Assembly: GCA_964016885.1 (NCBI GenBank)
Contig: OZ024742.1
Span: 214,458,001 to 214,522,000 of the forward strand
Source: Eledone cirrhosa
Taxonomy: Eukaryota
Direction: 5' to 3'
Length of the DNA stretch: 64,000 nt
The position numbers and the translations under genes were made by a program. Shown here piece after piece: positions 15,100 to 50,304 of this stretch (position 1 is the first letter of the stretch; each line of letters opens with the position of its first letter). The notes under the pieces were generated by a model, which had not been told where the DNA came from, searched no databases, and saw nothing but the letters and a program-made list of their open reading frames with translations.

Positions 15100-15987
15100 A
15101 AGAAAAAGAGATACAAAAACATAATCTGGTATAATGCTCCTTTCTCCATCTCTATTAATAAAAATATTCCTAAATTATTCTTTAGTGCCTTATATAAATG
15201 CTTCCCTCCCTCACATATCTATAGTAAAATATTTAACAAACACACTATAAAACTTTCCTATTCTACATCCTCCAACATTTCCAACATTATCTCTAAACAC
15301 AACAATAAAATACTAAATACTAAATCTCTTCCTTCCAACACTCATTATCATAATAATAGTAATAGTACTCCCGACGTCATTGTAAACCCTAGGCTAATTT
15401 CTGTAAACCTAAATACAACGTCAAACACAACTTCGCTAAATGTTCTTAATCTCATTCTAAATCAAGAAACTATTATTCCTATCGCAAACAACTTCTCCAA
15501 TCCAATTCCTTCTATAGATAACACTAGGTCACGCGTTAATAATCTCTCTAATCGCAATTGCAATTGCCCTGTTAAAAATAAATGTCCTCTCAACAACCAT
15601 TGTCTTGATAAAAACTTAATTTACGAATGTAAAGTTATAACTGACACCAATTCCTTCACCTATTTTGGCTCCACTTCCACCTCTTTTAAAGCTCGTCTTT
15701 ATAACCATCATTCGTCTTTTAAATACAAACTTAAAAGAACCAACACGGCTCTCTCAGAACTCATATGGTCCTTGAAAGACAAAAATATTAAATATAGCAT
15801 CATTTGGAAGAAGGTTTCTTCTGCGTCTCAATACTTGAACAGTTCTCTATCCAAAATTTGCAATCTCTGTCTAAATGAAAAATTTACCATTATATCTAAT
15901 TTAGATTCTATAATAAATAGACGCACTGACTTGTTTTCTATCTGCTTGCATAAATTCCACAAAACATTCCACAAAGTATACAGCTAA
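15100..15987 (+). pseudogene. PLE ORF C-terminal part (thumb, linker, GIY-YIG); open frame with no start codon
   Basis: Own translation: KNIIWYNAPFS...CNCPVKNKCPLNNHC...LIY...YFGST...FKARLYNH...CNLCLNEK. Confidence 0.85.
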
Positions 15988-20140: not shown

Positions 20141-21563
20141 TTATGGAGGATAAGTATCTGAAAGTGTGTTAAGTTTATATGAGCTGGAAAGCAGGTGTGA
20201 TTTCATGTGTGGGCAACTGGTGAAAATTTCCGTCTTTGTGTTCAGGCAGGTCTTTGGTGATTTAAGATTTTGCAATATCCAAAATTTTTCATTTATGCAG
20301 AGCGTGCACTTTCTTGTTCCTCTAGCATATTTTTTAGATTGGTTCAAAATTGACCAATCTAGTTTATATTTGATGCCTTGGTCTTTCAAATCCTAAATTC
20401 TGCTAGCCAGAGCTGTTGTAAATCTTTTTTCTGGATGTCGAAAGGATGCGACATGTGAGTAATAACGCGTTTTGAATCTGTCTTGCGTCATACCCACATA
20501 TCGTTCACTGGTGGCTGGATGGTTGTTGCTGATGGTTGTCACTTTAGCCGCATATACAATGGCTTTGGTGTTGCATTTACCTTGTAATGGGCATTCACTT
20601 TTGATTCTACAGGAGCAAGTTTGATTTTCTCTAGGTGATATTTTGTTGAGGATATAGGACTTAATAGGGGGACCGCAGGAATAGCTAATTTTAACACAGT
20701 TTCTGTTAAAGATCTTATAGTATCTATGTGTTCTAGGGAAATGTTTATCTAGGAGTTCTAGGAATTTTTTGCCTACATTAGTTTTAACTGCTAGAGAGTA
20801 GGGGGGTGTGAACCAGATTATTTTTCTTTTCCTATTTTTATGTGTAATAGAGTTAGTGTAGTTAGGTATGTATTTAATCGGTTCGCTAAAGCCGCTATTT
20901 TGGAGGGCTTTATTATAGTAGGGGGATGCCTTATTAAAAATAGCTTCTGAGGAAGAGAGGGTGGAGATCCTACGGCTAATATTAGGGATAAGGTTTTTAA
21001 AAACTATAGGTGGATGGCAAGATCCTTTATTTATATATTTTAAGTTTTCATTAGGTTTATGGTATGGTTTATAAGAAGCAGTAGGCAAATCTAGGTTTAT
21101 ATCTAGGAAATCTACGTTGGAAAGGTTAGTGTCAATAGTAATTTTAAGATTAAAACTAGCGAAGGTTTTTATTAAGTCTTTCCTTAATCTATCTAAGTTA
21201 TGGCCTATGGTGGTATGGGAAAGTATTAGACCATCATCGCGATAAAGCCCAAAAATATGGTTAGGAAATTTTTCTTTAAGTGTATGTAAGAGGAATAGGC
21301 CGACAAGATCACAAACCTCGGCACTGTCATAAGAGCCCATTGAGACATCGAATGGGTTCTCTGGGTTAGATATTTTTACCCAAGAGTCATTATCATTAAA
21401 AAGTAGAGTGTTCCTAGCATGCAAGATGACATTTTCTTCAATATTGGAGATATTAGTGAACCCGCTAGCGAAATTTAAAGCTTTCACTAAAAGGGTCTGA
21501 GTAATAGATGGGTAGAAATCTACAATGTCAAATTGGGTGAATCTAGAACTGATTTTGTTTTTA
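20141..21563 (-). pseudogene. PLE reverse transcriptase + GIY-YIG endonuclease, one nonsense codon
   Basis: FDIVDFYPSI, MGSYDSAEVCDLVG, YRDD, RKIIWFTPPYS, CSCRIKSECPLQGKC, IVY...YVG; TAG at 20393-20395 in place of the Trp of IW.LKD, frame continues to 20141. Confidence 0.9.
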
Positions 21564-21565
21564 TA

Positions 21566-21890
21566 TATATATTATTCAAAATGTTAATAAATGAAAAATA
21601 TTCTCATAATGAAAATATATATTTTATTATACATATTTCAAAGGTATTGAATAATCAAAACCGTAGCGGTATGTCACATATCAAGTCTTATATTTTGTCT
21701 GATGAAAACGTACTTAAACACCATTGTATCTTTGAAATATGTATAATAAAATATATATTTTGATTATGAGAATATTTTTCAATTATTAACATTTTGAATA
21801 ATATTAAATACTCCAGGAAAATCGTTTGTCGAGTGCTTCCAATCTATTGTAAAATTGTATTCGTTGATTAATCAACGAACCATATTAATT
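21566..21890 (+). mobile_element. Fold-back PLE remnant
   Basis: Imperfect arms ~21568-21648 and ~21727-21805; tail TACTCCAG...GAGTGCTTC resembles that of the 14294 family. Confidence 0.6.
21689..21755 (+). ncRNA. Hammerhead ribozyme, partly decayed stem II
   Basis: tatattttgt CTGATGA...GAAA tatgta TA ataaaatata. Confidence 0.6.
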
Positions 21891-23385: not shown

Positions 23386-23435
23386 AAGTTTTCGAAATAT
23401 TTACTTCTGCGTTCACAGATTCATTTTTTAATTTC

Positions 23436-23486
23436 AGTTTCAGAAGATCCCGTTAAAGGTGAAAGCAGGGATTCTTTGCTTAAACT
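23436..23486 (+). ncRNA. Hammerhead-like motif with CAGAAGA core, copy 2
   Basis: Near-identical to 11270-11320. Confidence 0.55.
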
Positions 23487-23507
23487 TTAATCTCTTATTT
23501 TATTATA

Positions 23508-24533
23508 TCTAGGCTTAATCATAACTTTTAACTTTGTCTTGCCTCCTTCTACTAGCACTTAACTAAATCCCCCACCAGTGTGAATAACTAGTAAACGTTT
23601 GGTAAATACGTTGGCCGGCGCAAGGTGGCGGACATCCCGCTAACACATCCGACGCTTTAGACAGTTAACAATCCTGGAGTGCTCGGAAAAATAAATTTCC
23701 ATTTCTTTCGCTAGACGACATTACTCGGAACGGCTGGCACGCCGTTGAGCCCCGGGCTGGCCGGTGGTCCGCTACGTCGCTGCTTATTGACCGCTAGGCA
23801 TGGGCTTAATCTTTACTCTATATTCTACCCTGAAACTATATCGTGACTATCTATAATGAACTTAAACTTTTTCATAAAAGCCTCCCTCTGTAAATTCTTT
23901 AACTAAATCTCACAACTTCGAACCTAAACCTTATTTTTCTAATTTCAGACGCCCACTATATATTAATATATATAGATCTGTTAAAGACATATGTTCTTTG
24001 ATATTTTTCGCGGCACTTTCTAGCACGCATGGCCAGCTTGATTGTGACCTGAGCTCAACGCTGGCCTCTGTCTTTGATGGGGTGATAATAGTACACTATA
24101 AGCCTACGTCCCTTATTAAGCCTACGTGATTATTAAGCCTACTTATGTCCATCTGGACATAAGTAGGCTTAATAATCACCACTTGAGGGCGACCGACCCG
24201 GGTAGAAGTGCTAAATGTTCGGTCGCCCTAATGTCTCTGATTTTCAGCCCCATGGATTTTGTCTATTATATTCCTTTGTTATATTTCGAATACCTGATGA
24301 TGTCACCGGATTCATACTGAACCCGGTCATTGAAATGATCATAGTATAATAAATCTGTTAAGGAATTACACCAGTCCAGCCTCCTGTTATTTTACAATAA
24401 TTAGCTCCCTACTCGCACCACCAACTACACAAACGAAGACGGGTGAGTTGCATTACGTTGAGTGCTCTCCATAATATTACATCGAGGTTGACCATAAGGA
24501 ATGACCAGTTCTATCCAGTGGTGAACCAACAAA
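23508..24533 (+). mobile_element. Hammerhead-bearing non-coding PLE-like repeat (structured-RNA family), copy 1
   Basis: Homologous to 25763-26807 and 49188-50132. Confidence 0.7.
24290..24347 (+). ncRNA. Minimal type I hammerhead ribozyme
   Basis: atac CTGATGA tgtcaccgg...ccggtcatt GAAA tgatca TA gtat. Confidence 0.8.
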
Positions 24534-24546
24534 CGCATATATATAA

Positions 24547-24739
24547 TTGTTTCTACTTTAGGGACAAGGCCAGCAATTACCCAGTGCATTACTGGTACTT
24601 TATTTTATCGACCCCGTAATGATGAAAGGCAAAGTCAACCTCGGCGGGATTTGAACTCAGATCGTAAAGGGACGTAACTGCTGGAAATGCTGGAAAGCAT
24701 GGCGTCCAACCCTCTACTGATACTGCCAATCCACCGCCC
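24547..24739 (-). mobile_element. tRNA-derived SINE copy 3
   Basis: Same A box, B-box-like motif and body as 4322-4506. Confidence 0.85.
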
Positions 24740-24744
24740 TTCAC

Positions 24745-26807
24745 AAACCCATATAAATAATGCTCCATGAAATGTCGAGCGCTTTCAGATGTAATAATGA
24801 ACAGCGGCACTGACTCCAGTGTACAGCTATCGCCAGCATGAGACTAACTACGCACCTTTCGGATTATGGCTGCCTTGACCTTTGTCTACCGCCCACCTGG
24901 ACCATGCATTGCTGCTTCCCTGTCGGGAATATTCAGACTCCGTCAGACCTCATAGATTCTTCAAAAAGTCAACATATTTTGCTATACCCTGTATTGTATT
25001 GACTGAATTCCCTATCCTATATTTCAGGGCTTTTGGGATTCACATTGAAAATTAAGACTCGAACCTACACTAGGTATCACCTGATGCCATTCCAACTCTT
25101 CCATCCTCTATATCTATATGTATAACCTTGCATCCTCCTACCGTGCTATATATTGCCCATTTACTGCACCTTGATATGTATTTTATTTCTTCGGTATTGT
25201 GATTTTTTCGATATGTTCTTATATACTTCCTTTTTACTCCCTACATCACCACCCTAGGTTTGGCTGCATTTTATTTATGTATTTTACTTATGTTTTTATT
25301 TATGTGTGTATTTATTTACTCGCTTTACTCTCCTTATATACTTGTCCTTGTACTCATTAGCACACGACCCTAGAATATTACTCTATGTACCCTTATATCT
25401 GTTTATCTTTATTCACTCCCCCTATCCACCCAGGAATCATACTACATATAACCCGGACTAAATGGGGACTAATTAAAGTCTATTTGCACATTTCATCAGA
25501 TTTTATAACTTTCAACTTCACATCACGGGTGTGAATAACAAATAATCGTTAGGTACACGCGTTGATCCGACGGATGTGGCGGCTTTCCCGACTGCACGCC
25601 AGGCGCTCGGAACGATCAGCCAGCCTAGAGTGCTTGGAAAAATAAATTTCCCCTATTTTCGGTAAACGAAATTACTCGGAACGATTGCTTCGCCCTGGGG
25701 CCGTGTCGGACTTGGAACCCGCCGCGACACCGGTTATTTACCGCCAAACAATACCTTTAAATTCTAGGCTTAATCATAACTTTTAACTTTATCTTGCCTC
25801 CTTCTACTATCACTTAACTAAATCGCCCACCAGTATGAATAACTAGTAATCGTTTGGTATATACGATGGCCGGACGACGGTGGCGGACTTCCCGCTAGCA
25901 CACCCGACGCTTAAGACAGTTAACATTCCTGGAGTGCTCGGAAAAATAAATTTCCATTTCTTTCTGTAGACGATAATACTCGGAACGGCTGGCACGCCGT
26001 TGGGCACCGGTCTGGCTGGGGTCCGCAACGTCGCTGGTTATTGACCGCTAAGCATGGGCTTAATCTTTACTCTATATTCTACCCTGAAACTATATCGTGA
26101 CTATCTATAATACACTTAAACTTTTTCATAAAAGCCTCCCCCTAAACCTTATTTTTCTAATTTCATCTTAAATGGAATCTTCTAACTCTAAACATAAATT
26201 TAAGGTTTCTAATTGTTAATCGTAATTTCTGTCCATACATGATACCATGCAGACGCCCACTATATATTACTATATATAGATCTGTTAAAGATATATGTTC
26301 TTTAATAATTTTCGCGGCACTTTCTAGCACGCATGGCCAGCATCATTGTGACCTGATCTCAACGCTGGCCTCTGTTTTTGACGGGCTGGTAGTAGTACAC
26401 TATAAGCCTACGTCCCTTCACCAGATGGACATAAGTAGGCTTAATAATCACCAATTGAGGGCGACCGACCGGGGTAGAAGCTGCTAAATGTTCGGTCGCT
26501 CTCATGTCTCTGATTTTCAGCCCCATGGATTCTGTCTATTATATTCCTTTGTTATATTTCAAATACCTGATGATGTCACCAGATTAATACTGAACGCGGT
26601 CATTGAAATGATCATAGTATAATAAGCTTTTTAAGGAATTACAAACGTCCAGCCTCCTGTTATTTTACAATAATTAACTCCCTACTCGCACCACCAACTA
26701 CACAAACGAAGACGGGTGAGTTGCATTACGTAGAGTTCTTTCCATAATATTACATCGAGGTTGACCATACGGAATCACCAGTTCTTTCAAGTGGTGAACC
26801 AACAAAC
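24745..26807 (+). mobile_element. Longest copy of the structured-RNA PLE-like family (5' boundary uncertain)
   Basis: Two tandem diverged GC-rich units (25526-25745, 25830-26048), a hammerhead and the family tail. Confidence 0.6.
26563..26620 (+). ncRNA. Minimal type I hammerhead ribozyme
   Basis: atac CTGATGA...GAAA tgatca TA gtat. Confidence 0.75.
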
Positions 26808-27011
26808 ATAAATAAATATATATATATATATATAATTATATATTGGTTTACAGATAATTTTGCATACACATTAACAAAATATAAACAAAAGTATTTATTT
26901 CGCGATAAAGTATTAATGTTCTTCGCACAGAATGTACGACGGATTTTTTTCATGAGCACAAAATGTAGACACCGTCCGGAGGCCGAGGAATTCCGTACTT
27001 CTCGGTACTGT

Positions 27012-27046
<35 letters not shown>

Positions 27047-27050
27047 ATTA

Positions 27051-29522
27051 CTCTTTGAGTCTCAGTCATTGATGTTAGTTAACTGGAAAGTTTGTTGAAA
27101 TTAATATCAAGCCACTACCTGCAGCCTCATACATACAGGACGTATCGGAGGGTTCTTGCTGTTCCCAGCAAGCATGCCTTTTGAAGCGTTCCAAAAAGCG
27201 TGAAGGGGCCAATTTTCTTTAACCATCCCTGGAAACTTTTTGAGATAGTCCCTAGTGCGCCTATGACAATCGGGATCACTTTGACTTCATGGCAGTTCCA
27301 AGTCCGTTTTACCTCCCACTTTAAGTCCTGGTATCGGTTAATTTTCTCCCTCTCCTTCTCTTGCACTCTCGTGTCGAATGGGCAGGCCACATCCACAATC
27401 AGGCACGATCTTTTTTTCTTTTTCCACAACCACCAGGTCAGGTCTATTGTGTTCCAGTTTCTTGTCAGTCTGTATCCTAAAATCCCACAGCACCTTCACC
27501 TGATCCTTTTCTATCACCGACTCTGGCTTATGCTCATACCACTTCTCAGAATGTGGTAAATTGTTTACTTTGCATAGGTGCCAGTGGATCACCCTGCCCA
27601 TCACATCATGTCTCCATCCCTTATAGTGAGTCTGAGCTAGGTGTTTACACTCGGATACAATGTGAGCCACAGTCTCCTCTCTCTCTCTCCACAGATCCTG
27701 CACAGTGGGCTAGCCTCCTCCTTGTAAATATGGTGTTTCAACCACTTCGATTTGAACGCCTGCTCCTGCGCAGCCATTAACATTCCTTCTGTAGCCTTTT
27801 TAAGGTCTCCTCTTCTCAACCAGTTCCATGTCTGTGGATTTCTAAATTCAGTTTTCTCAAAGAAGGTACTATGAAGGGATTTTTCCTGAAGGCTGCTCTT
27901 TCTCCTTGATGTTATTTTCCCCTTGGACATCCCCTGGCCTATTGTCACCTCCTTCAGTACAGTTCTGATCATTGGCTCCTTACTATCAGTCACGTATTTG
28001 TGTAGGTTGTTTTTCTCCTTCTGAACACAGTCCTCTATGCTGATAAGACCTCTTTCACCCTCAGATCTCCTTAAGTAGAGTCTATCGACATCACTCCTCT
28101 TGTGGAACATGTTGTAGATACTCAATAGCTTCCTAGTCTTCCTATCCATTTCTTTCTGTTCAGCAACATTCCATCTCAGAATTCCCGCACTGTACCTAAT
28201 AATAGACACAGCTTGGGAATTTACTGCACTTATGGCATTTCTACTGTTCAGATGTGACTTAAATACGCTCCTTACTCTCCGAATGTATTCAGTTCTTATC
28301 AATTCCTTCATTTTTTTATTCTTGATGTCATCAGCCTCCAGAACCTCCAAATACTTGTATCCTTCATCAGAGTCAATTTCCTTTATCATCTCAACCGTTG
28401 GTACCTGGATTCCGTTACTTCTGCTCAACTTACCCCTCTTCATCACAATGACTCCACACTTACTAATACCAAATTGCATACATATATCATTGTTGAAAAT
28501 ACGGACAGTGTCAACAAGCACATCCAACTCCTTCTCACTCTTGCCGAAGAGGTTAAGATCGTCCATGAAGATGAGGTGTTTGATGGTAAGCCCTCCCTTT
28601 CCCAACCTGTATCCTGCTCTCACTTTTCGCAGTACACTGGTCAGGGGCATCAGGGCAAGGACAAACAACAGAGGGGACAGAATATCTCCCTGGAAGATAC
28701 CTCTCTTGATCTTAACGCTTCCCAAGGATTCTCCAGTTGATGTTAACTCTGTTTCCCAGGACTTCATACTTTTGCCCAACAACTGTCTGATGTTATCTGC
28801 CACCCTGAAGATCTCCAGGCTTTTGGTGATACAAGAATGAGGCACCATGTCAAATGCCTTTTTGTAGTCTATCCATCCCATGGCAAGACCAGTGTGTCTC
28901 CTCTTGCAATTCCTCATTACCAGCTTATCAATAAGTAACTGGTCCTTTGTACCATGTGACTTCTTTCGGCATCCTTTCTGTTCGTCCGGTAACAGGTTGT
29001 TTGTGTGGAGGTGATGGTAGATTTCCTCAGACATAATGCTTGTCAACAGTTTCCACATTACGGACAGACATGTGATAGGTCTATAGTTGGTAACATCATT
29101 ACCCTTGATTCGGTCTTTCATTATCAGAACAGTGGTACCTTTTGTCAACCACTCTGGTACCTTACCTGACATCAAGCAGTCATTGAACATGGTTGTCAGT
29201 TTCGGGTGGAGGGATGTTATATTTTTAATCCAATACCCCTGCACACCATCTGGGCCTGGTGATTTCCAGTTGGTTAATTTTTTGGCCTGCCCCTTAAGAG
29301 TTTCAACTGTGATACTCAAATCAGTTTGTTGGTGTGCCTGTTCACTAATCTCCTTCTGTACTGTCTCAATCCACACTGCCTGGTCATTATCTTTAACATC
29401 CTGCTCCCATATTCCTCTCCAGAATGTTTTAGTTTGTTCCGCCTCAGGGATCAAGTCGTTGCCTCTTTCTTCCCCTTCAAGCTGTCCAAACAGCATCTTC
29501 TGGTTGTTGTCGAACATGCGGT
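27051..29522 (-). mobile_element. R4/Dong-like RLE non-LTR retrotransposon family A, 5'-truncated, frameshifted
   Basis: WKSPGPDG, YRPITCL, IDYKKAFD, GIFQGDILSP, FMDD, CRIC...HIVSEC, RPDLVV...DVACP; TAA-type tail at 27036-27050. Confidence 0.92.
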
Positions 29523-32500
29523 GTACGGTAAGTGGTCTTTCCCATCTTTTCCACTCTATTTTAAACATGACCTCACTCAGAATAGGCAGCATAAATGCGC
29601 GTGGCTTGGGGTCGTCATGGAAGCAGGGTCACCTGCTCAACGACCTCAGGTCACTAAACATAGATGTAGTGGCCATCAGCGAGACCAGAATCTCCGAAGC
29701 ACGGGCCTTCGCACCGATCTTCGGCGGCTACGATGTGTACGCATCTCCCAGCCGTCCTGGATCGGGTGGAGGAGTTGCTGTGCTTTTTCGGAGAGGTTTG
29801 GATCTCGCCATACGGGCCATCTTCCTGGACCCAGAGGGTAAGCTGGTGGTGCTGGACGTGACCAGCGGAGACGGGCAAGCTTTCAGGCTAGTGGCCGTCT
29901 ATGCCCCGACAGGAGCAGGGCGGCCGGATTTCTTCCGGCGTCTGGAGACCTTTCTTGGAACGTCCCGCTCTTTAGTGTTAGTGGGCGACTGGAACGGGAT
30001 CTTAGATGCACGCTGGGACTGTGTGGGATTAGCGGATAGGGGTGGAGGGTGCAAGAGCCTCACCAACCTGCTCAGGCGTTTTGAACTGTCTGACAGGTAC
30101 CGATTGGATTTCCCGAATGTGCCAATGTGGACTTGGACAAACCGCATAGGGTCATCCAGATCATATCTAGATAGAGTATTTTGTAGGGAAATAGATAGGT
30201 CTAGCATAGGCTGTCCACAATTCAAGATAGTCAGCTACACGGACCACAAATTCGTGACCTGTGTGCTTGACTTAGATAGGCTTCATAGACGAGGACCCGG
30301 CTACTGGAAGCTAAACGCGTCCTTACCAGCGCGCAAGGCCTACAGAGACCGGATTAGCGAACTAGTTAAGCGGGCGTTGACGGGGGCCATCGTCAACAAC
30401 AAGTGGTGGTTTGCTCTGAAAAGAGCGATTAGAATAGAATCGATTAGGTTTAGTAAGGCTTTAGCAATAGAGAAAAATAGAGCAGAGGGAGAACTAGTTA
30501 GAAAATTAGACGAGGCGCTTAGCAAAGGCATTGCGACCGACGTGCTTGCGGCGAAATTGGCCCTTGACCAATTCTTCAATGCAAAGCACGAAGGCTGCGT
30601 TGTCAGAGCTAGGTTGCGTGCTCTCAGACACGAGGCGACGAAAGCCGTTCAATGGGCCCGAGTGGCGGAGGCGCGTCGTGGCAACAAAGCCACGATCCGG
30701 TCTTTGGTGGACCACGACGGGCGCATGCTACTCGATCCCGGGCAAATGTGTGAAGCTTTTCAGCGACACTTCGCTCAGCTGTTCGGGGGCAGCGGGGGGC
30801 CTGGTAGAGGGATGGACTTTAGTGTCTACCTCGACGGACTGCCGCGGCTCTCGGCCACTGAGGCGAAGTGTTGCGAAAAGCCGATAACAGCCGCTGAAGT
30901 ACGGGAGGCAATGACTGGCTGCACAAGGGGTAAATCGCCTGGTTTGGATGGTCTGCCCTATGAACTTTACGTACAGATGCCAGACTTGTTCGGAGGCCTC
31001 TTGGCGGACGTCTACTGCAACTGGCAACAGAACGGGAGAATTCCCAGTTCTGTGAGCCGAGGAGCGGTGGCACTGCTGAGAAAGGATCCGAACAAGGGGA
31101 ATAACATAGAAAATTTCCGGCCCATAACTCTGCTAAACACAGAGTTTAAGATTTTGGCCAAGGTGCTAGCAAAGAGGTTGGCGCTTGTCGTTGGTGGTCT
31201 GGTGGGAGAGGCGCAGACATGCGCCATTCCCGACAGATCCATCCACGACAACCTCCACCTCATGCGATACATCGTAGAGAGGGTAGCTAGGGAACCTGGC
31301 ACGGGTGGGTCCTTGATCAATTTAGATCAGTCGAAAGCTTTCGATAGGGTCGACCATCGTTACCTAGCGGCAGTCCTGAGGGCGGCTGGCTTTGGGCCCG
31401 TCTTCAGAGGCTGGATCGCTGCCATGCACAGCGACATCTGCTCTGTGGTGAGAGTGAATGGTCACCTGTCGGAACCGTTCAACATCATGCGCTCGGTCCG
31501 CCAAGGATGTCCCCTCTCATCCCTCTTGTACGTATTGACTCTCGAGCCATTACTGCACAAACTGGAGACGTTGAGGGGGGTCCCGCGCGAACTAGGATGC
31601 GGAAGATCCGTGTCAGCATATGCGGACGATGTCACCGTAGTGGTGTCGAACGCCAAACACATCGAGGCGATCGGCACTACACTAAGAGAATACGAAGCGG
31701 TGACAGGAGCAATGATCAACAAGGAAAAGTCAGTGGGCCTGCAGCTCGGCACCTGGAGAGGCAGGTCCATGCCGTCCAACAGCGTCGTCGGGCGATGGAC
31801 GGACGGACCGGTTAAATTGCTAGGGGTCTGGTTCGGTCCGGACCTCCAGCCGGACAAAAACTGGGACGAGGTGACGAGCAGGGTGGCTTCTCTCACCCAG
31901 AAATGGGCGGAGACGAAGCTATCCCTGAAAGGTCGAGCGGAGGAGGCTAACGCGTACATCGCGTCTGTCATCTGCTATCGCCTAACCGTCGTACCTTGTC
32001 CTAAGCCTCGCCTGACTGCGCTGGAGCGTTTGCTCTTTCGCTTTTTGTGGAAGGGACGTGCTCCGATGGTCAGGCGGTCCATCTGTTGTCAACACCCGCT
32101 ACGTGGAGGGCTGGGCATGCCGTGGCTGATGATGCGCAGGCACGCGCTCAGGCTACGACATCTCCACCTCTTCCTCGACGGTGATGAGGTGTGGTCGCCG
32201 TTTGCTAGACGCGTTTTTCCCCAGCTCGTTTCCTTGACGGAGCTGCAGTCCTGGGTCAAGCGAAGAGCGAGAGGGAGCACCTGGAGACTGGAATGTCTTC
32301 AGGCGCTCACAGCCCTCGACCAATCGGGCAATGTGATCGGTGGAAACTCCACCTCGGCGTTCTATAGAGGATTAGTGGAGGGGAAGAGCGACGACGTACT
32401 TGGGGAAACTCTAGGCGTCGACGAAAATCAACTAGCCAATCTCTTCGGAAGAACTTTCGGGCCAGGGCCTATGGACAACTTCCAGAAATCTCTGGCCTGG

Positions 32501-33248
32501 CAGTGCTACCGAGGAGCCTTGCCAGTTCGGGATAAACTCTACAGGCATGGAGGTGCCGTCAGCCGGGCATGTCCGAGATGCGCGCAGGGCGACGAAACCG
32601 TCCTGCACGCACTCGTCCAGTGTCCGAAAATTGCTGACTTGTGGGTTTATGTCGAACACCTGCTGTCGCGTTTAGGACGGATCCAGCTATCATCTGAGTC
32701 TATCGTGAGGATTGCCCCGCCCTCCTCCTTTAGCCGGGAAGGGCAGGCAGTTTTTATCTGCCTGGTGGCCATGGTGAAAGAGATAGTATGGTGGACACGT
32801 TTGAAAGGGCTGAAGACGAGCACTTACCTCTTCGGTGATGCTCTGATTGACTTTTTCAAATTTCATTTGAAAAGGAAAATCAGAGTAGAGAGGGAAGTGC
32901 TCTCTTCCCAGCATTTTGTTGAAAGATGGGTGAGAGAAGCAAGAATGGCCCGAGTGAATGGGCCTACTCTGAGTATATATCTGTAAATTAAAGGTGGAAA
33001 ACTGGGAGAGGGCACTTGCCTTGGTGGTCAGGGTCATTGTGGCTTTTTACTGGGCTTTCTCCACAAATGTCCCTCCGAAGTCTCCCCCCTATTGGGGAAT
33101 TTTTCATTGTTATTTTCATTGTTATTTTTGTTACATCCTCTGTTTTTGTTTTTTTACACGCAGAAATGCCCATTTGTACCGTCCTGCATTGTCCTGCACT
33201 GTCCTTAATGTCTACTTTATGTAAACCCTTGTGGTTAATAAAGAAATC
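29523..33248 (+). mobile_element. Tx1/L1-clade non-LTR retrotransposon copy 1, 5'-truncated at the ORF1 stop
   Basis: Near-identical to 35577-39304; followed by (ATT)8. Confidence 0.95.
29567..32986 (+). CDS. ORF2: APE endonuclease + reverse transcriptase + C-terminal CCHC (1139 aa), intact
   Basis: INARG, SET, GDWN, YLDR, TDH; PGLDG, RPITLLN, DQSKAFD, RQGCPLS, YADD; CPRC...H...C. True start is the ATG at 29567. Confidence 0.93.
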   Translation: MTSLRIGSINARGLGSSWKQGHLLNDLRSLNIDVVAISETRISEARAFAPIFGGYDVYASPSRPGSGGGVAVLFRRGLDLAIRAIFLDPEGKLVVLDVTSGDGQAFRLVAVYAPTGAGRPDFFRRLETFLGTSRSLVLVGDWNGILDARWDCVGLADRGGGCKSLTNLLRRFELSDRYRLDFPNVPMWTWTNRIGSSRSYLDRVFCREIDRSSIGCPQFKIVSYTDHKFVTCVLDLDRLHRRGPGYWKLNASLPARKAYRDRISELVKRALTGAIVNNKWWFALKRAIRIESIRFSKALAIEKNRAEGELVRKLDEALSKGIATDVLAAKLALDQFFNAKHEGCVVRARLRALRHEATKAVQWARVAEARRGNKATIRSLVDHDGRMLLDPGQMCEAFQRHFAQLFGGSGGPGRGMDFSVYLDGLPRLSATEAKCCEKPITAAEVREAMTGCTRGKSPGLDGLPYELYVQMPDLFGGLLADVYCNWQQNGRIPSSVSRGAVALLRKDPNKGNNIENFRPITLLNTEFKILAKVLAKRLALVVGGLVGEAQTCAIPDRSIHDNLHLMRYIVERVAREPGTGGSLINLDQSKAFDRVDHRYLAAVLRAAGFGPVFRGWIAAMHSDICSVVRVNGHLSEPFNIMRSVRQGCPLSSLLYVLTLEPLLHKLETLRGVPRELGCGRSVSAYADDVTVVVSNAKHIEAIGTTLREYEAVTGAMINKEKSVGLQLGTWRGRSMPSNSVVGRWTDGPVKLLGVWFGPDLQPDKNWDEVTSRVASLTQKWAETKLSLKGRAEEANAYIASVICYRLTVVPCPKPRLTALERLLFRFLWKGRAPMVRRSICCQHPLRGGLGMPWLMMRRHALRLRHLHLFLDGDEVWSPFARRVFPQLVSLTELQSWVKRRARGSTWRLECLQALTALDQSGNVIGGNSTSAFYRGLVEGKSDDVLGETLGVDENQLANLFGRTFGPGPMDNFQKSLAWQCYRGALPVRDKLYRHGGAVSRACPRCAQGDETVLHALVQCPKIADLWVYVEHLLSRLGRIQLSSESIVRIAPPSSFSREGQAVFICLVAMVKEIVWWTRLKGLKTSTYLFGDALIDFFKFHLKRKIRVEREVLSSQHFVERWVREARMARVNGPTLSIYL

Positions 33249-33485
33249 ATTATTATTATTATTATTATTATTGAATGCCATGGTTGACGGAGGCTCGGCT
33301 CTGTAAGGTATAGTAATTTTTAACCGTTAAAACAATTGTAAATTGTTTAAAACTTGAACCAAATTGTTGATAAAGACACCCTCCTCCTCGTGAGAGGGGT
33401 CTTTCTGTCCGTTATTTGGCCCTTCGGGGTTAAATAGCCAGTTATTGGGGTTTTGTACCCAAAATTTCATTTTAAACAAAAAAAC

Positions 33486-35585
33486 ATGGCTACCAAAAAA
33501 AAAAAATTTCACACGTCACTCCCACTCATTCCGTCTTCTTCTTCCTCAATCATCACTACAGGAGAGAGAAGATTGTCTCTCTCCCTCCCTTCTTTAAATG
33601 TGTCTCTCTCCCTACCTTCTCTTTCGCAAGCGACGAAAGAAAAGAAAAGTTTCGTGCAAAGCGTGCAAGGTTTCTCCACGACGACGACGACAGCGACGAA
33701 ACAGGTGTGCGGGAAATACGAAAACCCAGTTCATTCGTCTGACGTCAGGAATAATAGCAGTAGCAGCCGTAATAACAACAGCAACAGTGACAATGAAAAC
33801 AACAGTAGCAGCCGCAACAGCATCACCAGCAGCATAAACAACAACAGCATTAGCAGCAGCAACACCAACAACAACCACAGCAACAGCGGCGGAGGCAGTA
33901 GTCGTAGTACCTGCAGCAACAACAAAAGTACCAGCAGCTCTGACGACAACAACAACAGCAGAGAAAAACCAATCTCATTTGCAGGTATTGCGAAAAACCT
34001 GGAAACAATCCTCATAACAAATGAGGAATTAGAGGAAGCGAAGAAGATGGTGACAAAGAACGGACACCGAGCAATCTGCAAGGCAGCGAAAAATTTTTTC
34101 GAAACCCAAGAGCACTGTACGGTCACGTACCGTACAGTAAGTACAAAATCCCGTAGGGTGGAAAGAGCCACAGAGGCCCAAATACAAAAAGCCTTGGGGT
34201 CTGTGTGGCAGAGGAAAACGCACATCACCCGAGGCAAAAAATACGCCACCGTAGACGTACTTTTTGCCACACCCCAGGAGGCAAAGGCCCAATCAGTAGT
34301 GACCCTAAGGAGCGAGGAAATGGTGTTGGTGCCCTCCTACTGCGGGCAAAAAATTGTGAGGGTCAAACTGACCCACGTCCCCCCCGGAATGACCCCTTCT
34401 TGGCTGGCCGCGTCTGTCCTCGTCGGAATCGAGGACAAAACAACTGTACTGCAAGTACAGAAAAAAGTAAGAGAAGATTGGGTCGGCTCCTCCATTGAGA
34501 TGCTAATCCAAACCAACCAGGAGTGCATCGAAGCTATCCCGGATGTGATAGACTTCGATAACGGCACTCAACTGCCCATAAGTGTTGAGGGCAAACGCCC
34601 GAAATGCTTTCGCTGTGGATCGAAGACTCACCTCAGGGCCTTCTGCAACGAGAAGACCCTGAGAAAGGAGAAAACCCCCCTCCTCCCGAATCCGGTTCCA
34701 CGGCTACCAGCAACAGGACAAGCGGCAACCAGGAACGATAGGTCCGTGGCACCCATACCCACTCCACGGAAATCAAAGACAGCAGCAGCAGTGGAAATAT
34801 TAACAACAACAACAGCAATACCAAATGCAGCTGCAACAGAGACTCCAGTGCAAACATCACCAACAACAACAAGTGAAAGAGTGGAGCTGGTACCCCTCCC
34901 CGACCTTACAGAATCAGACATGGAGTGTGAGGTGGGAGAGGGATGGCAAAAGGTCTCAAGAAGGCACAAACGCAGAAGCAGCGCATCGTCGCCTTTGAAA
35001 AGGGAGGAAAGAAATGAGAAAAGGGTAAAGTCTACTGCAAAGAGACCCACAGCAGCAACACCACCAACACCATCACCACCCACACCAGCACCACCATCAG
35101 CACCGGCGACAACCCCACCGCCAACAACACCTTCAACACCACCACCACAAGCACCAACATCGCAAACACAACAACAAAACACACACACCCAGCAACAACG
35201 ACAAGAAAATAGTAGAACCACACCCCACCCCCAGAAAAACAAATGCACGGCAATAAATACACACAACAAGAAACTAATGACTTACATAATTGAACACACA
35301 GACATTTCACAACAGGACTACATAATACCAGCACCAATCAAAACGCCAACTAACATAAGACTGCTAAAAATAGCACAGAAACAATACACAAATATTAAAA
35401 CGAAATTCCCCAACGCAGTTGGTGATTTCAGGGACCTAGGAGGAACCATCAATCGAAGAGTATACTCAGACATTCTCTTAGAAGAGCCGACGACCAGCCG
35501 AAGGGACGATTCAACGGTCCCTTCACCAGACGATCAAGTGAAAAGGGATGTAAAAACCATCCCTCCTCTACCAAAAGTACGGTAA
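33486..35585 (+). CDS. ORF1 gag-like protein with CCHC zinc knuckle (699 aa from first ATG)
   Basis: CFRCGSKTHLRAFC; S/N-rich and P/T-rich low-complexity flanks; directly upstream of ORF2. Confidence 0.88.
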   Translation: MATKKKKFHTSLPLIPSSSSSIITTGERRLSLSLPSLNVSLSLPSLSQATKEKKSFVQSVQGFSTTTTTATKQVCGKYENPVHSSDVRNNSSSSRNNNSNSDNENNSSSRNSITSSINNNSISSSNTNNNHSNSGGGSSRSTCSNNKSTSSSDDNNNSREKPISFAGIAKNLETILITNEELEEAKKMVTKNGHRAICKAAKNFFETQEHCTVTYRTVSTKSRRVERATEAQIQKALGSVWQRKTHITRGKKYATVDVLFATPQEAKAQSVVTLRSEEMVLVPSYCGQKIVRVKLTHVPPGMTPSWLAASVLVGIEDKTTVLQVQKKVREDWVGSSIEMLIQTNQECIEAIPDVIDFDNGTQLPISVEGKRPKCFRCGSKTHLRAFCNEKTLRKEKTPLLPNPVPRLPATGQAATRNDRSVAPIPTPRKSKTAAAVEILTTTTAIPNAAATETPVQTSPTTTSERVELVPLPDLTESDMECEVGEGWQKVSRRHKRRSSASSPLKREERNEKRVKSTAKRPTAATPPTPSPPTPAPPSAPATTPPPTTPSTPPPQAPTSQTQQQNTHTQQQRQENSRTTPHPQKNKCTAINTHNKKLMTYIIEHTDISQQDYIIPAPIKTPTNIRLLKIAQKQYTNIKTKFPNAVGDFRDLGGTINRRVYSDILLEEPTTSRRDDSTVPSPDDQVKRDVKTIPPLPKVR

Positions 35586-35620
35586 GTGGTCTTTCCCATC
35601 TTTTCCACTCTATTTTAAAC

Positions 35621-38600
35621 ATGACCTCACTCAGAATAGGCAGCATAAATGCGCGTGGCTTGGGGTCGTCATGGAAGCAGGGTCACCTGCTCAACGACCT
35701 CAGGTCACTAAACATAGATGTAGTGGCCATCAGCGAGACCAGAATCTCCGAAGCACGGGCCTTCGCACCGATCTTCGGCGGCTACGATGTGTACGCATCT
35801 CCCAGCCGTCCTGGATCCGGTGGAGGAGTTGCTGTACTTTTTCGGAGAGGTTTGGATCTCGCCATACGGGCCATCTTCCTGGACCCAGAGGGTAAGCTGG
35901 TGGTGCTGGACGTGACCAGCGGAGACGGGCAAGCTTTCAGGCTAGTGGCCGTCTATGCCCCGACAGGAGCAGGGCGGCCTGATTTCTTCCGGCGTCTGGA
36001 GACCTTTCTTGGAACGTCGCGCTCTTTAGTGTTAGTGGGCGACTGGAACGGGATCTTAGATGCACGCTGGGACTGTGTGGGATTAGCGGATAGGGGTGGA
36101 GGGTGCAAGAGCCTCACCAACCTGCTCAGGCGTTTTGAACTGTCTGACAGGTACCGATTGGATTTCCCGAATGTGCCAATGTGGACTTGGACAAACCGCA
36201 TAGGGTCATCCAGATCATATCTAGATAGAGTATTTTGTAGGGAAATAGATAGGTCTAGCATAGGCTGTCCACAATTCAAGATAGTCAGCTACACGGACCA
36301 CAAATTCGTGATCTGTGTGCTTGACTTAGATAGGCTTCATAGACGAGGACCCGGCTACTGGAAGCTAAACGCGTCCTTACCAGCGCGCAAGGCCTACAGA
36401 GACCGGATTAGCGAACTAGTTAAGCGGGCGTTGACGGGGGCCATCGTCAACAACAAGTGGTGGTTTGCTCTGAAAAGAGCGATTAGAATAGAATCGATTA
36501 GGTTTAGTAAGGCTTTAGCAATAGAGAAAAATAGAGCAGAGGGAGAACTAGTTAGAAAATTAGACGAGGCGCTTAGCAAAGGCATTGCGACCGACGTGCT
36601 TGCGGCGAAATTGGCCCTTGACCAATTCTTCAATGCAAAGCACGAAGGCTGCGTTGTCAGAGCTAGGGTGCGTGCTCTCAGACACGAGGGGACGAAAGCC
36701 GTTCAATGGGCCCGAGTGGCGGAGGCGCGTCGTGGCAACAAAGCCACGATCCGGTCTTTGGTGGACCACGACGGGCGCATGCTACTCGATCCCGGGCAAA
36801 TGTGTGAAGCTTTTCAGCGACACTTCGCTCAGCTGTTCGGGGGCAGCGGGGGGCCGGGTAGAGGGATGGACTTTAGTGTCTACCTCGACGGGCTGCCGCG
36901 GCTCTCGGCCACTGAGGCGAGGTGTTGCGAAAAGCCGATAACAGCCGCTGAAGTACGGGAGGCAATGACTGGCTGCACAAGGGGTAAATCGCCTGGTTTG
37001 GATGGTCTGCCCTATGAACTTTACGTACAGATGCCAAACTTGTTCGGAGGCCTCTTGGCGGACGTCTACTGCAACTGGCAACAGAACGGGAGAATTCCCA
37101 GTTCTGTGAGCCGAGGAGCGGTGGCACTGCTGAGAAAGGATCCGAACAAGGGGGATAACATAGACAATTTCCGGCCCATAACTCTGCTAAACACAGAGTT
37201 TAAGATTTTGGCCAAGGTGCTAGCAAAGAGGTTGGCGCTTGTCGTTGGTGGTCTGGTGGGAGAGGCGCAGACATGCGCCATTCCCGACAGATCCATCCAC
37301 GACAACCTCCACCTCATGCGATACATCATAGAGAGGGTAGCTAGGGAACCTGGCACGGGTGGGTCCTTGATCAATTTAGATCAGTCGAAAGCTTTCGATA
37401 GGGTCGACCATCGTTACCTAGCGGCAGTCCTGAGGGCGGCTGGCTTTGGGCCCGTCTTCAGAGGCTGGATCGCTGCCATGCACAGCGACATCTGCTCTGT
37501 GGTGAGAGTGAACGGTCACCTGTCGGAACCGTTCAACATCATGCGCTCGGTCCGCCAAGGATGTCCCCTCTCGTCCCTCTTGTACGTATTGACTCTCGAG
37601 CCATTACTGCACAAACTGGAGACGTTGAGGGGAGTCCCGCGCGAACTAGGATGCGGAAGATCCGTGTCAGCATATGCGGACGATGTCACCGTAGTGGTGT
37701 CGAACGCCAAACACATCGAGGCGATCGGCACTACACTAAGAGAATACGAAGCGGTGACAGGAGCAATGATCAACCAGGAAAAGTCAGTGGGCCTGCAGCT
37801 CGGCACCTGGAGAGGCAGGTCCATGCCGTCCAACAGCGTCGTCGGGCGCTGGACGGACGGACCGGTTAAATTGCTAGGGGTCTGGTTCGGTCCGGACCTC
37901 CAGACGGACAAAAACTGGGACGAGGTGACGAGCAGGGTGGCTTCTCTCACCCAGAAATGGGCGGAGAGGAAGCTATCCCTGAAAGGTCGAGCGGAGGTGG
38001 CTAACGCGTACATCGCGTCTGTCATCTGCTACCGCCTAACCGTCGTACCTTGTCCTAAGCCTCGCCTGACTGCGCTGGAGCGTTTGCTCTTTCGCTTTTT
38101 GTGGAAGGGACGTGCTCCGATGGTCAGGCGGTCCATCTGTTGTCAACACCCGCTACGTGGAGGGCTGGGCATGCCGTGGCTGATGATGCGCAGGCACGCG
38201 CTCAGGCTACGACATCTCCACCTCTTCCTCGACGGTGATCAGGTGTGGTCGCCGTTTGCTAGACGCGTTTTTCCCCAGCTCGTTTCCTTGACGGAGCTGC
38301 AGTCCTGGGTCAAGCGAAGACCGAGAGGGAGCGCCTGGAGACTGGAATGTCTTCAGGCGCTCACAGCCCTCGACCAATCGGGCAATGTGATCGGTGGAAA
38401 CTCCACCTCGGCGTTCTATAGAGGATTAGTGGAGGGGAAGAGCGACGACGTACTTGGGGAAACTCTAGGCGTCGACGAAAATCAACTAGCCAATCTCTTC
38501 GGAAGAACTTTCGGGCCAGGGCCTATGGACAACTTCCAGAAATCTCTGGCCTGGCAGTGCTACCGAGGAGCCTTGCCAGTTCGGGATAAACTCTACAGGC

Positions 38601-39040
38601 ATGGAGGTGCCGTCAGCCGGGCATGTCCGAGATGCGCGCAGGGCGACGAAACCGTCCTGCACGCACTCGTCCAGTGTCCGAAAATTGCTGACTTGTGGGT
38701 TTATGTCGAACACCTGCTGTCGCGTTTAGGACGGATCCAGCTATCATCTGAGTCTATCGTGAGGATTGCCCCGCCCTCCTCCTTTAGCCGGGAAGGGCAG
38801 GCAGTTTTTATCTGTCTGGTGGCCATGGCGAAAGAGATAGTATGGTGGACACGTTTGAAAGGGCTGAAGACGAGCACTTACCTCTTCGGTGATGCTCTGA
38901 TTGACTTTTTCAAATTTCATTTGAAAAGGAAAATCAGAGTAGAAAAGGAAGTGCTCTCTTCCCAGCATTTTGTTGAAAGATGGGTGAGAGAAGCAAGAAT
39001 GGCCCGAGTGAATGGGCCGACTCTGAGTATATATCTGTAA
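35621..39040 (+). CDS. ORF2 APE-RT-CCHC (1139 aa), intact
   Basis: Same motifs as 29567-32986; about 17 aa differences by manual count. Confidence 0.95.
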   Translation: MTSLRIGSINARGLGSSWKQGHLLNDLRSLNIDVVAISETRISEARAFAPIFGGYDVYASPSRPGSGGGVAVLFRRGLDLAIRAIFLDPEGKLVVLDVTSGDGQAFRLVAVYAPTGAGRPDFFRRLETFLGTSRSLVLVGDWNGILDARWDCVGLADRGGGCKSLTNLLRRFELSDRYRLDFPNVPMWTWTNRIGSSRSYLDRVFCREIDRSSIGCPQFKIVSYTDHKFVICVLDLDRLHRRGPGYWKLNASLPARKAYRDRISELVKRALTGAIVNNKWWFALKRAIRIESIRFSKALAIEKNRAEGELVRKLDEALSKGIATDVLAAKLALDQFFNAKHEGCVVRARVRALRHEGTKAVQWARVAEARRGNKATIRSLVDHDGRMLLDPGQMCEAFQRHFAQLFGGSGGPGRGMDFSVYLDGLPRLSATEARCCEKPITAAEVREAMTGCTRGKSPGLDGLPYELYVQMPNLFGGLLADVYCNWQQNGRIPSSVSRGAVALLRKDPNKGDNIDNFRPITLLNTEFKILAKVLAKRLALVVGGLVGEAQTCAIPDRSIHDNLHLMRYIIERVAREPGTGGSLINLDQSKAFDRVDHRYLAAVLRAAGFGPVFRGWIAAMHSDICSVVRVNGHLSEPFNIMRSVRQGCPLSSLLYVLTLEPLLHKLETLRGVPRELGCGRSVSAYADDVTVVVSNAKHIEAIGTTLREYEAVTGAMINQEKSVGLQLGTWRGRSMPSNSVVGRWTDGPVKLLGVWFGPDLQTDKNWDEVTSRVASLTQKWAERKLSLKGRAEVANAYIASVICYRLTVVPCPKPRLTALERLLFRFLWKGRAPMVRRSICCQHPLRGGLGMPWLMMRRHALRLRHLHLFLDGDQVWSPFARRVFPQLVSLTELQSWVKRRPRGSAWRLECLQALTALDQSGNVIGGNSTSAFYRGLVEGKSDDVLGETLGVDENQLANLFGRTFGPGPMDNFQKSLAWQCYRGALPVRDKLYRHGGAVSRACPRCAQGDETVLHALVQCPKIADLWVYVEHLLSRLGRIQLSSESIVRIAPPSSFSREGQAVFICLVAMAKEIVWWTRLKGLKTSTYLFGDALIDFFKFHLKRKIRVEKEVLSSQHFVERWVREARMARVNGPTLSIYL

Positions 39041-39302
39041 ACTAAAGGTGGAAAACTGGGAGAGGGCACTTGCCTTGGTGGTCAGGGTCATTGTGGCTTT
39101 TTACTGGGCTTTCTCCACAAATGTCCCTCCGAAGTCTCCCCCCTATTGGGGAATTTTTCATTGTTATTTTCATTGTTATTTTTGTTACATCCTCTGTTTT
39201 TGTTTTTTTTTACACGCAGAAATGCCCATTTGTACCGTCCTGCATTGTCCTGCACTGTCCTTAATGTCTACTTTATGTAAACCCTTGTGGTTAATAAAGA
39301 AA

Positions 39303-42300: not shown

Positions 42301-43310
42301 TTAGCCGATGCATAATAGAGATGATTTAAATCAGTAATGTTTAGTTTGTTTGTGATGATAATGTTTTGAGAATTATGTTAGTCTTGTGTATTATCTTTTG
42401 GTTCTTTTTGGAGTTCTGGATCTTAGGGAAGGTATCTCGTTGCCCCATGTCAGATTCTTTCATTTTCATCCATTCGATCATAATTTCATCCTTCAAGTTG
42501 GCAAGTTCATTCTCATTCATTTCTTTATCATTTACGATCTCATTATTTTCATTTGGAGTTTCATCCTGAGCATGCACTCCCTCCACTTTTTCGATCCTTT
42601 CTTTAATTTGATCTGTTGCCAGTGATTCCGCCCCAACCCTGGGATTCGAAGTGTTACAGTTTACCTCGTTTTCACTGACACATGTTTCATTTTCCCTTCG
42701 CTGACTTTGTGCTAATAGCTTGATCTGATCAATTTCTATATCACTTAGTAACTTTTTTTTTACAATATTTCTTCGTATATTGGCTAGTTTGTTACTGTCA
42801 GTATAGCCTCTGTTTTCGGGATGTTTCTTTTTCCAGTTGATATATGTCTGTTCTGTATTCGATGTATTTGATGGGTAGTACATGGCAGTGTAGAAAGCCT
42901 CAAGGACTTCTTTATTATCTTCCCTTGACCATTTTTCTCTCTTTTTCTTTGGATTTCTTGGTGGTGAGCATGGAGGGCCAACAGTAGGAGTATTCCGGTT
43001 ATGGAAGGTCTCCAGCTCCGAAGTGATGGGAAGGTTTGAACGATTAGCTGATTTTTCGACCCCAGTCTGGTTCCTCTCTGAGGGACGCGGCCCTTTTTCA
43101 CCCGGGTGACGGCCGATCCGGTATGAGATTTTATCATTAGACATTTACTTTATTTTGTCGCGTGTTATCCTTATCCGCCAAGGGGTAATCATTTCGTGTT
43201 AAGAACTTCTAGAACGAGTGTCAACCAAGACTAGAGGGGTCGTTCTCCCCTAGAGACACGGCTATTCCCCGCCGGCCGCCATCCCGGTATTTCTTGGTCA
43301 CGGGGTTTTC
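39351..43310 (-). mobile_element. Near full-length R4/Dong-like family B, inactivated
   Basis: ORF pieces 43144 to 39495 with frameshifts and stops; KWSREDNK N-terminus, WKSPGKD, YRPITCL, YMDH (mutated YMDD), RPDIILKD...IDMSVP. Confidence 0.9.
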
Positions 43311-49183: not shown

Positions 49184-49187
49184 TATA

Positions 49188-50132
49188 CACCCGACGCTTA
49201 TGACAGTTAACATTCCTGGAGTGCTCGGAAAAATAAATTTTCATTTCTTTCGCTAGACGATAATACACGGAACGGCTGGCACGCCGTTGGGCCACGGGCT
49301 GGCTGGGGGGCGCAACGTCGATGCTTATTGACCGCTAGGCATGGGCTTAATCTTTACTCTATATTCTACCCTGAAACTTTATCGTGACTACCTATAATGC
49401 ACTTAAACCTTTTCATAAAAGCCTCTCTCTGTAAATTCTTTAACTAAATCTCACAACTTCAAAACTAAACCTTATTTTTCTAATTTCATCTTAAATGGTA
49501 TCTTCTAACTGTAAGCATAAATAATTTAACGTTTCTAATTGTTAATCGGAATTTCTGTCCATACATTATACCATGCAGACGCCCACTATATATTACTATA
49601 TATATAGATTTGTTAAAGATATGTTCTTTGATATCTTTCACGGCACTTTCTAGCACGTTTGACCAGCTTGATTGTGAGCTGACCTCAACGCTGCCCTCTG
49701 TTTTTGACGGGGTGGTAGTAATACAGTATAAACCTTCGCCCTTTCACCAGATGGACATAAGTAGGCTTAATAATCACCAATTGAGGGCGACCGACCGGGG
49801 TAGAAGCTGCTAAATGTTCGGTGGTCCTCATGTCTCTGATTTTCAGCCTCATGGATTTTATCTATTATATTCCTTTGTTATATTTCAAATACCTGATCAT
49901 GTCACCGGATTCATACTGAACCCGGTCATTGAAATGATCATAGTAAATTAAACCTTTTAAGGAATTACACCAGTCCAGCCTCCTGTTATTTTACAATAAT
50001 TAACTCCGTACTCGCACCATCAACTACAAAAACAAAGAGGGCTGAGTTGCATTACGTTGAGTGCTCTCCATAATATTACATCGAGGTTGACCATACGGAA
50101 TGACCAGTTCTATCCATTGGTTAACCAACAAA
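49188..50132 (+). mobile_element. Structured-RNA PLE-like family copy 3 (hammerhead core mutated to CTGATCA at 49893)
   Basis: Homologous to 25900-26807; (TA)n on both flanks. Confidence 0.7.
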
Positions 50133-50304
50133 TATAAATATATTATATATATATATATATATATATTAGAAAGTGAGGTTTTTTTTTACAAAATGAAAAC
50201 TAACCGAGGTGTCCTACACGAGTGGAAGTATAAAGAAAAAGAGATGAAATCGAAAATGCAACTGAAGTCTTATTTAAAAAAAAAATATATATATTTATTT
50301 GGTT

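Follow-up and report, generated by a model that had tools for sequence, protein, structure and literature searches.

Animal non-LTR retrozymes (Cervera and de la Pena 2020, PMC7229834; Li et al., bioRxiv 10.64898/2026.07.22.740005) are tandems without an open reading frame (ORF) that carry a type I hammerhead and a repeat related to Penelope-like elements (PLEs); their described monomers measure about 225-400 nt, and self-cleavage as well as circular monomeric RNA in vivo are among their characteristics. Non-autonomous PLEs such as Chlamys-derived MRC1 (PMC8557442) and the hammerhead-bearing pLTRs of PLEs (PMC4209133, PMC11167929) form partial pLTR tandems and inverted truncated copies, have two 3' ends (an optional tail, described with 30-40 nt), lie at AT-rich (TA)n targets, and combine a minimal dimer-type hammerhead with an intron across the pLTR/body junction, as reported for Penelope and Chlamys (PMC8557442). 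In the Anolis PLE there are two reverse transcriptase (RT) start sites and a tail, and the minimal RNA is located immediately 3' of the pLTR (PMC11167929). Schistosoma W-elements are a looser parallel: non-coding monomers of up to about 1.2 kb, some with active hammerheads, in satellite arrays (PMC8490949). As far as the available texts go, hammerhead and tail are the only signals in cis described for the mobilisation in trans of retrozymes and of Penelope derivatives without an ORF.

Here we analysed a stretch of 64,000 nt from Eledone cirrhosa (the window), whose genome comprises 3.0 Gb and is rich in microsatellites. The window holds an element with the following parts:

24743 to 26810, + strand: ORF-less unit (~2.07 kb) of a Penelope-derived, non-autonomous, hammerhead-bearing tandem element
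23508 to 24545, + strand: upstream tandem copy, 5'-truncated, with domain copy B2, a 5' splice site predicted at 24443, and a pLTR in which the hammerhead core is at 24294
49187 to 50146, + strand: dispersed copy, 5'-truncated, with a partial domain copy B (junction at 49219) and a pLTR whose hammerhead core is mutated (49893)
24543 to 24747, + strand: SINE-like dispersed short repeat at the unit junction
25003 to 25027, + strand: 3' side of a predicted intron that would span the pLTR/body junction, with its predicted branch point, its pyrimidine tract and, at 25026-25027, the AG of the 3' splice site
26457 to 26503, + strand: pLTR hairpin 5' of the hammerhead, from folding
26563 to 26620, + strand: minimal type I hammerhead of PLE type, from sequence (helix I at 26563, core at 26567)
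26672 to 26810, + strand: PLE-type tail between two preferred insertion 3' ends, with an AC-rich end and a predicted 5' splice site (GT at 26716)

Sequence comparison of the family loci showed that similarity among copies spans 24743 to 26810. Since the 3' end rejoins position 24743 directly in 19 of the 22 distinct loci that reach that point, the unit is a tandem monomer of about 2.1 kb. The same joint is also present in two public sequencing runs, one of DNA and one of unspecified kind, which carry no information on expression. A query with both domain copies yielded 1,464 candidates in the genome, and the 40 that were scored are 88-94% identical, the window itself excepted. The unit has no convincing ORF, as the preliminary description had noted for the domain, and none that is similar to the PLE proteins compared. 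Tandem units that each bear a type I hammerhead and lack an ORF agree with animal retrozymes. However, 67 complete units, measured between the 5' anchor and the end of the pLTR, were 1,046-3,115 nt long, mostly 1.7-3.1 kb, usually stood in partial tandems, and were in no case as short as retrozyme monomers. Frequent 5'-truncated inverted copies and partial tandems of the pLTR correspond to non-autonomous PLEs. Judged from its sequence, the element appears to behave as a non-autonomous PLE or an animal retrozyme, with a hammerhead and repeat architecture of PLE type. Hammerhead-bounded non-coding units are thereby extended from a few hundred nt to 2-3 kb. Several copies have the SINE-like repeat directly at the unit junction or slightly within it (in the window at 24543-24747, and in loci L007, L010, L017 and L024), so one sub-lineage may carry it as a part of the unit.

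The hammerhead consists of a 4-bp helix I, a CTGATGA core, a long helix II and a palindromic helix III, that is, the minimal features reported for metazoan PLEs (PMC4209133). It is predicted to cut after 26616 and to require a dimer. Its pattern had 1,434 exact matches in the genome and none in the control. A counterpart of the pLTR hairpin folds in six of eight hammerhead-to-hammerhead intervals, the other two not being natural units. Across subfamilies the pairing of this hairpin (26457-26503) is preserved while its loops vary. A sister pLTR family (L268-L327), found as truncated copies only, has a far longer, near-perfect hairpin at the same place.

Among 30 hammerhead-anchored copies, 13 have their 3' end near 26672 and 17 near 26810. 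These two insertion ends past the hammerhead resemble the two RT start sites of the Anolis PLE (PMC11167929), and insertions usually abut (TA)n, as in PLEs. However, with about 140 nt the tail is longer than the 30-40 nt of described PLEs. The predicted intron has the position reported for Penelope and Chlamys (PMC8557442); its 5' splice site is weaker in A26/A27 units. Splicing of such a Penelope-type intron (24443-25027 and 26716) would take out the AC-rich insertion end. A search with one junction pattern found no spliced genomic copy. Downstream of the hammerhead, the family consensus contains AATAAA.

Unlike retrozymes, these units carry predicted splice sites and, in addition, a separate structured module in one to four copies, and the available text of PMC8557442, PMC4209133 and PMC11167929 describes no rod-and-junction module for PLEs. 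Nor is a comparable module described in the available text on Schistosoma W-elements (PMC8490949), and the titles and abstracts found by literature searches (Repbase, subscription papers and supplements lying outside this scope) contained none. In the window the module occurs as follows:

25526 to 25749, + strand: domain copy A, predicted rod with an apical three-way junction
25628 to 25677, + strand: conserved A junction of ~50 nt
25830 to 26053, + strand: domain copy B, predicted rod with junction
25932 to 25981, + strand: conserved B junction
23575 to 23799, + strand: domain copy B2 in the truncated upstream copy, junction at 23677-23726

The preliminary description had already recorded A, B, B2 and a partial B, with several sequence blocks in common; all are present (the partial B from 49187), each block at its place. 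It had also put the hammerhead roughly 500 nt 3' of the domain, which agrees with a start about 515 nt after B. Copies A and B are 70% identical. The A junction is made up of a 5-bp closing helix, a 5-bp hairpin with an A-rich loop of 6 nt and a second 5-bp hairpin with a loop of 5 nt. Two junction patterns had 907 and 474 exact matches in the genome, against zero in controls. We collected 237 distinct domain copies; 203 of them clustered into 13 subfamily variants, and the 34 in clusters of one or two copies were left out. An independent sample of copies reproduced all ten consensuses for which it contained enough copies. A tree of the variants separates A from B/X types. The architectures found are A+B, A alone, A+A, A+A+A, B+A+B and A+B+A+B. 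All homologues of the domain come from this one genome, and the evidence is entirely computational.

To assess retention of the module without using the domain itself, we took a motif at the 5' end of the unit, which has 219 matches, and analysed 80 loci from among the first 100. Sixty-seven of these loci were complete, and 66 of the 67 carried the domain in one (n=9), two (n=54), three (n=1) or four copies (n=2). The sole complete unit without it is a deletion copy of 1,046 nt that was observed once. An A type is present in 65 of the 66 domain-bearing units; B is dispensable. In 81 of 88 motif-anchored loci a hammerhead pLTR follows 0.6-1.4 kb downstream on the same strand, whereas none of 59 PLE control loci reached the linkage threshold. 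In the B18, B3a and B3b variants, deletions have removed part of the 3' arm or of the basal strand and left the junction intact, which makes the lower rod of B dispensable. One RAD-seq run showed a spike in B18-type read depth at 25916-25984, probably caused by a restriction site beside the B18 junction.

Most subfamily consensuses fold as a long imperfect rod with the same ~50-nt three-way junction at its apex. The helix that closes the junction has a pairing probability of at least 0.8 in 11 of the 13 consensuses; the exceptions are B_own and B3b, whose optimal folds lack the junction. On the + strand, family consensuses folded better than shuffled sequences (z -3.3, compared with -0.6 and -1.6 for the - strand). 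Energy was lower on the + strand in all 13 consensuses and z in 11 of them. Stability is ordinary in the B18 consensus (z -0.5), and the single copies in the window are decayed and fold no better than shuffled sequences (z -0.9, -1.7 and -0.4). Conservation is concentrated at the apex. Identity by bin is 0.87-0.92 in the junction and 0.93-0.94 in the hammerhead, compared with 0.47-0.89, mostly below 0.85, elsewhere; across the 13 consensuses it is 0.85 in the junction versus 0.60-0.63 in the arms. Several unpaired junction bases are invariant.

The base of the rod departs from what had been proposed. By-eye folding in the preliminary description gave a closing stem, a small 5' hairpin, a long interrupted helix and an apical junction with two hairpins. 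The long helix and the two-hairpin junction recur in the family consensuses. In contrast, in the four long types that could be scored, pairing probability is at most 0.002 for the closing stem and at most 0.001 for the 5' hairpin. An alternative basal helix, GTTTGGT/GCYAARC, is favoured instead, with a probability of 0.70-0.99 in six of seven types by a method that does not score pseudoknotted coexistence of both basal folds. At the rod base, each of the five short A consensuses has a tract of 3-4 U opposite one of 4-6 U, with flanking G-C pairs. The U-rich loop is degraded in copy A of the window and absent in B and X13.

Is the pairing of the arms maintained by selection? With each type's own substitutions placed at random, the arm duplex of the five short A types averaged -45.6±2.5 kcal/mol, compared with -60.2 observed (0/400 as stable); for six B/X types the values were -33.4±2.0 and -44.6 kcal/mol (0/400). 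The gap between observed and random energy is thus -14.6 kcal/mol in A and -11.2 in B/X, while copies compared after insertion show only -4.4 to +0.3. One explanation without function is that the module is a neutral relic, a decaying ancestral inverted repeat whose pairing is renewed by template switching between its arms. In 160 neutral simulations from A-type ancestors, such gaps averaged 1.2-3.7 and reached 11.7 kcal/mol at most; therefore the A result is clear and the B result borderline. The A gap was never reached, whereas the B gap was, although all simulations started from A types (minimum -11.7). Simulated arm energies of -37 to -46 kcal/mol also fall short of the roughly -60 observed. 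Cognate arms paired better than swapped ones in 68 of 78 pairs over all types and in 13 of 15 among the long types. Among the five short A types this test failed: cognate arms were better in only 3 of 10 pairs (104/120 permutations), and the fact that some non-cognate pairs are stabler than cognate ones is in line with a relic, as is the absence of significant covariation described below. However, a relic accounts poorly for retention in 66 of 67 units and for a junction conserved, loops included, nearly as well as the hammerhead. We regard it as quite improbable.

Formal covariation of the fold is not shown. The column-wise score was 0.098 versus 0.101 after shuffling (321/500), which is not significant. 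Of the 42 and 41 pairs that RNAalifold predicted, no more than three each show a double change (3 of 42, 3 of 41), and most junction pairs never vary. The junction cells nevertheless pair in 92.7% of cases versus 36-57% for slid partners, and the sole count that stands out is that of double-change junction cells (7 versus 3.0 shuffled, 4/500). Changes in the stems mostly preserve G-U pairs, with one G-C/G-U/A-U series. The three compensatory changes cited in the preliminary description do not hold up. The double change AACGT/ACGTT belongs to the copy at 23573 alone: of 40 B copies, 26 were parsed and 14 were not, and one of the 26 has it. In GGCG/CGCC versus GACG/CGTT the 3' partners are offset by 3 nt (+13 versus +16 from the junction), which is a register slip and not a column-wise change. 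The GATTG of CGATC/GATTG is private to copy A of the window, the family having GGCTG. From the comparisons between subfamilies we conclude that selection upholds arm pairing, for the most part by way of register slips and of changes involving G-U. Thus, the earlier proposal of a functional RNA domain in a PLE or retrozyme-like element is supported by pairing selection, retention and PLE-type architecture, while the covariation and the base of the fold that had been cited for it are not.

These data also bear on the idea that the ~50 nt act as DNA, as a promoter or enhancer of inverted and direct transcription-factor sites, with the RNA fold incidental. The segment is rich in GC and CpG, contains GGAAA/TTTCC as an inverted pair, repeats the word CTCGGAA, lies 0.6-1.4 kb 5' of the pLTR, and has a core that is invariant and does not covary, all of which would suit such sites. 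However, an enhancer would explain neither the strand asymmetry and the G-U-preserving changes nor the long-range pairing of arms that persists while their sequence drifts, and we consider this improbable. The sequence comparisons point to a real, selected RNA motif, outside Rfam, in an unusually long ORF-less Penelope derivative.

A binding site is suggested by four features together: the scaffold is free in sequence, the exposed apex is invariant, nearly every unit retains the module, and the module has multiplied repeatedly. We see about an even chance that the module docks a protein which helps the RNA of the element to be copied by a borrowed RT. In such a mechanism, the + strand of the unit would be transcribed, and the protein of an autonomous PLE would bind and prime at the pLTR tail. 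The rod would be the scaffold on which the junction is exposed, offering a second binding site distal to the template, so that an RNA with more copies of the module would compete better for the enzyme. RT recruitment, one of the roles suggested earlier, may therefore apply, though not as the start of reverse transcription: the insertion ends place that start in the tail, at the end of the pLTR, and the module itself is not the start site. As to the ligand, the PLE protein is tentatively ranked first, by analogy; host export or stability factors come second, as a possible if rather unlikely choice, and the translation machinery third.

The RT is placed first because of an analogy with telomerase. 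Telomerase RT is the sister of PLE RTs, and its second RNA site, CR4/5, is a distal three-way junction (PMC4993307). CR4/5, which binds the RNA-binding domain of the RT, has three short helices, one of them a short stem with a 5-nt loop, as is predicted for the junction here, and both are remote from the template start; where CR4/5 has a 4-bp stem, the second hairpin here is predicted to have 3-5 bp. However, CR4/5 has an invariant adenosine between P6 and P6.1, whereas the linker of the A and X types consists of pyrimidines alone. The first hairpin is short, unlike that of CR4/5, and no Rfam telomerase model matched. The analogy is a functional one only. The module also lies upstream of the pLTR, in contrast to the minimal RNA of the Anolis PLE just downstream of it (PMC11167929). 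In its fullest form, which we find doubtful, the units would be giant retrozymes of 2-3 kb, and the module a site that can be transferred and multimerised and that captures a telomerase-like Penelope RT; it would be the PLE counterpart of CR4/5, used in the manner of the Alu dimer to outcompete the coding element. If the ligand were indeed the PLE RT, RNA recognition by PLEs and by telomerase would be linked. In any case, 13 variants with one to four copies per unit provide a compact, naturally mutagenised motif with which trans-mobilisation can be tested by deletion and binding.

A binding site for the RT would be expected in the autonomous partner too, and therefore the absence of a junction homologue from 89 loci of three autonomous PLE families (covariance model R1, flanks of 1.5 kb) counts against the RT as ligand. 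The pLTR and 3' end of the unit are not shared with the three ORF-bearing families sampled, two Naiad-like and one other PLE. No autonomous partner was found among the sampled PLE families, the sister pLTR family consisting of truncated copies only. Applied to 99, 76 and 29 sequence sources, R1 retrieved family copies only (best non-family score 16.7 bits). Viral contigs gave no exact match to the junction pattern; a relaxed pattern hit eight loci there, and the three inspected were chance matches in coding DNA. Metagenome contigs gave one hit, also by chance. In the genome itself, the 28 sequences that fitted a loop-variant pattern were all point mutants of types already known, and a new family was not among them. 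As proposed earlier, we searched Rfam 15, and no covariance model matched the domain, whether the query was the window (E<=1), positions 23400-26850 (E<=10) or, at the gathering score, six loci of the subfamilies; the matches obtained were miRNA noise driven by microsatellites or palindromes. Likenesses to SRP, RNase P, tRNA-like structures, the rRNA GTPase centre and the CTE were rejected, either for want of Rfam support or because the motif is not kept across subfamilies. A pre-miRNA was rejected since the apex is conserved and the arms are not, and a polyadenylation hairpin since the loop hexamer varies in B types.

Alternatively, the module could bind host factors for stability or nuclear export of the unspliced non-coding transcript, with the rod base of the short A types acting in addition as an ENE-like poly(A) clasp; we doubt this more than we credit it. 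The opposed U-tracts of the short A consensuses, located upstream of a poly(A) signal, are shared with the ENE of the Evade retrotransposon, an element of the kind that forms a triple helix with poly(A), and an ENE raises the mobilisation of a plant retrotransposon (PMC12501189). The near-constant presence of an A type alongside a dispensable B fits, as does the consensus AATAAA after the hammerhead. Because the RT start region has predicted splice sites on both sides, an unspliced form must survive. On the other hand, the lineages of window copy A and of B and X13, in which the U-loop is degraded or absent, nevertheless amplified; the invariant part is the apex and not the U-loop, and Rfam gave no match.

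Docking of ribosomes or initiation factors, or the relic of an IRES or cap-independent enhancer from an ancestral coding PLE, is in our view distinctly unlikely. In having a long stem topped by a Y-shaped apex, the module is similar to viral translation elements, and the Alu dimer docks on ribosomes; dimerisation and multimerisation of the module are likewise recurrent. However, an ORF directly downstream, as an IRES would have, follows the domain in no subfamily, and neither Rfam nor the viral contigs, with their chance matches, lend support. A new self-cleaving ribozyme is the least probable reading, and highly improbable in itself. The junction is compact and conserved and several of its unpaired bases are invariant, but its strands lack a hammerhead core and the unit already bears a hammerhead. 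The 5' truncation points of 88 motif-anchored copies are evenly spread with no pile-up at the domain, which is an indirect and weak test. With no ORF after the domain and no accumulation of 5' ends at it, the IRES-like and ribozyme roles entertained earlier are thus disfavoured.

Several other elements were observed during this analysis. ORF fragments of Naiad-like PLEs lie in the window at 20393-21571 (- strand) and 15100-15987 (+ strand). The family of the former is young and very abundant, has open frames of ~719 aa and shares no DNA with the element. A word resembling the hammerhead core occurs ~1.2 kb past a Naiad-like ORF in two loci (L074 at ~4135, L084 at ~4148), while Naiads are reported to lack canonical hammerheads. 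Another very abundant PLE family (L238-L267) has open frames of up to ~1,260 aa and a hammerhead-like motif ~300 nt after the ORF. In one case (L102, 1-1500) a Naiad-like copy is fused to a 5'-truncated A27 unit without a microsatellite, possibly by a template switch, and in another single case (L426) a Naiad-like fragment is nested in a truncated unit. As one-off chimeras or nested insertions, both were rejected as candidates for the autonomous partner. Finally, the window contains young copies of non-LTR retrotransposons at 27034-29628 (- strand), 29523-39170 (+ strand), 52010-55596 (- strand), 39354-43144 and 57867-61927. One of them has a Pfam RVT_1 match, and another family has long intact ORFs and is present in two tandem copies.
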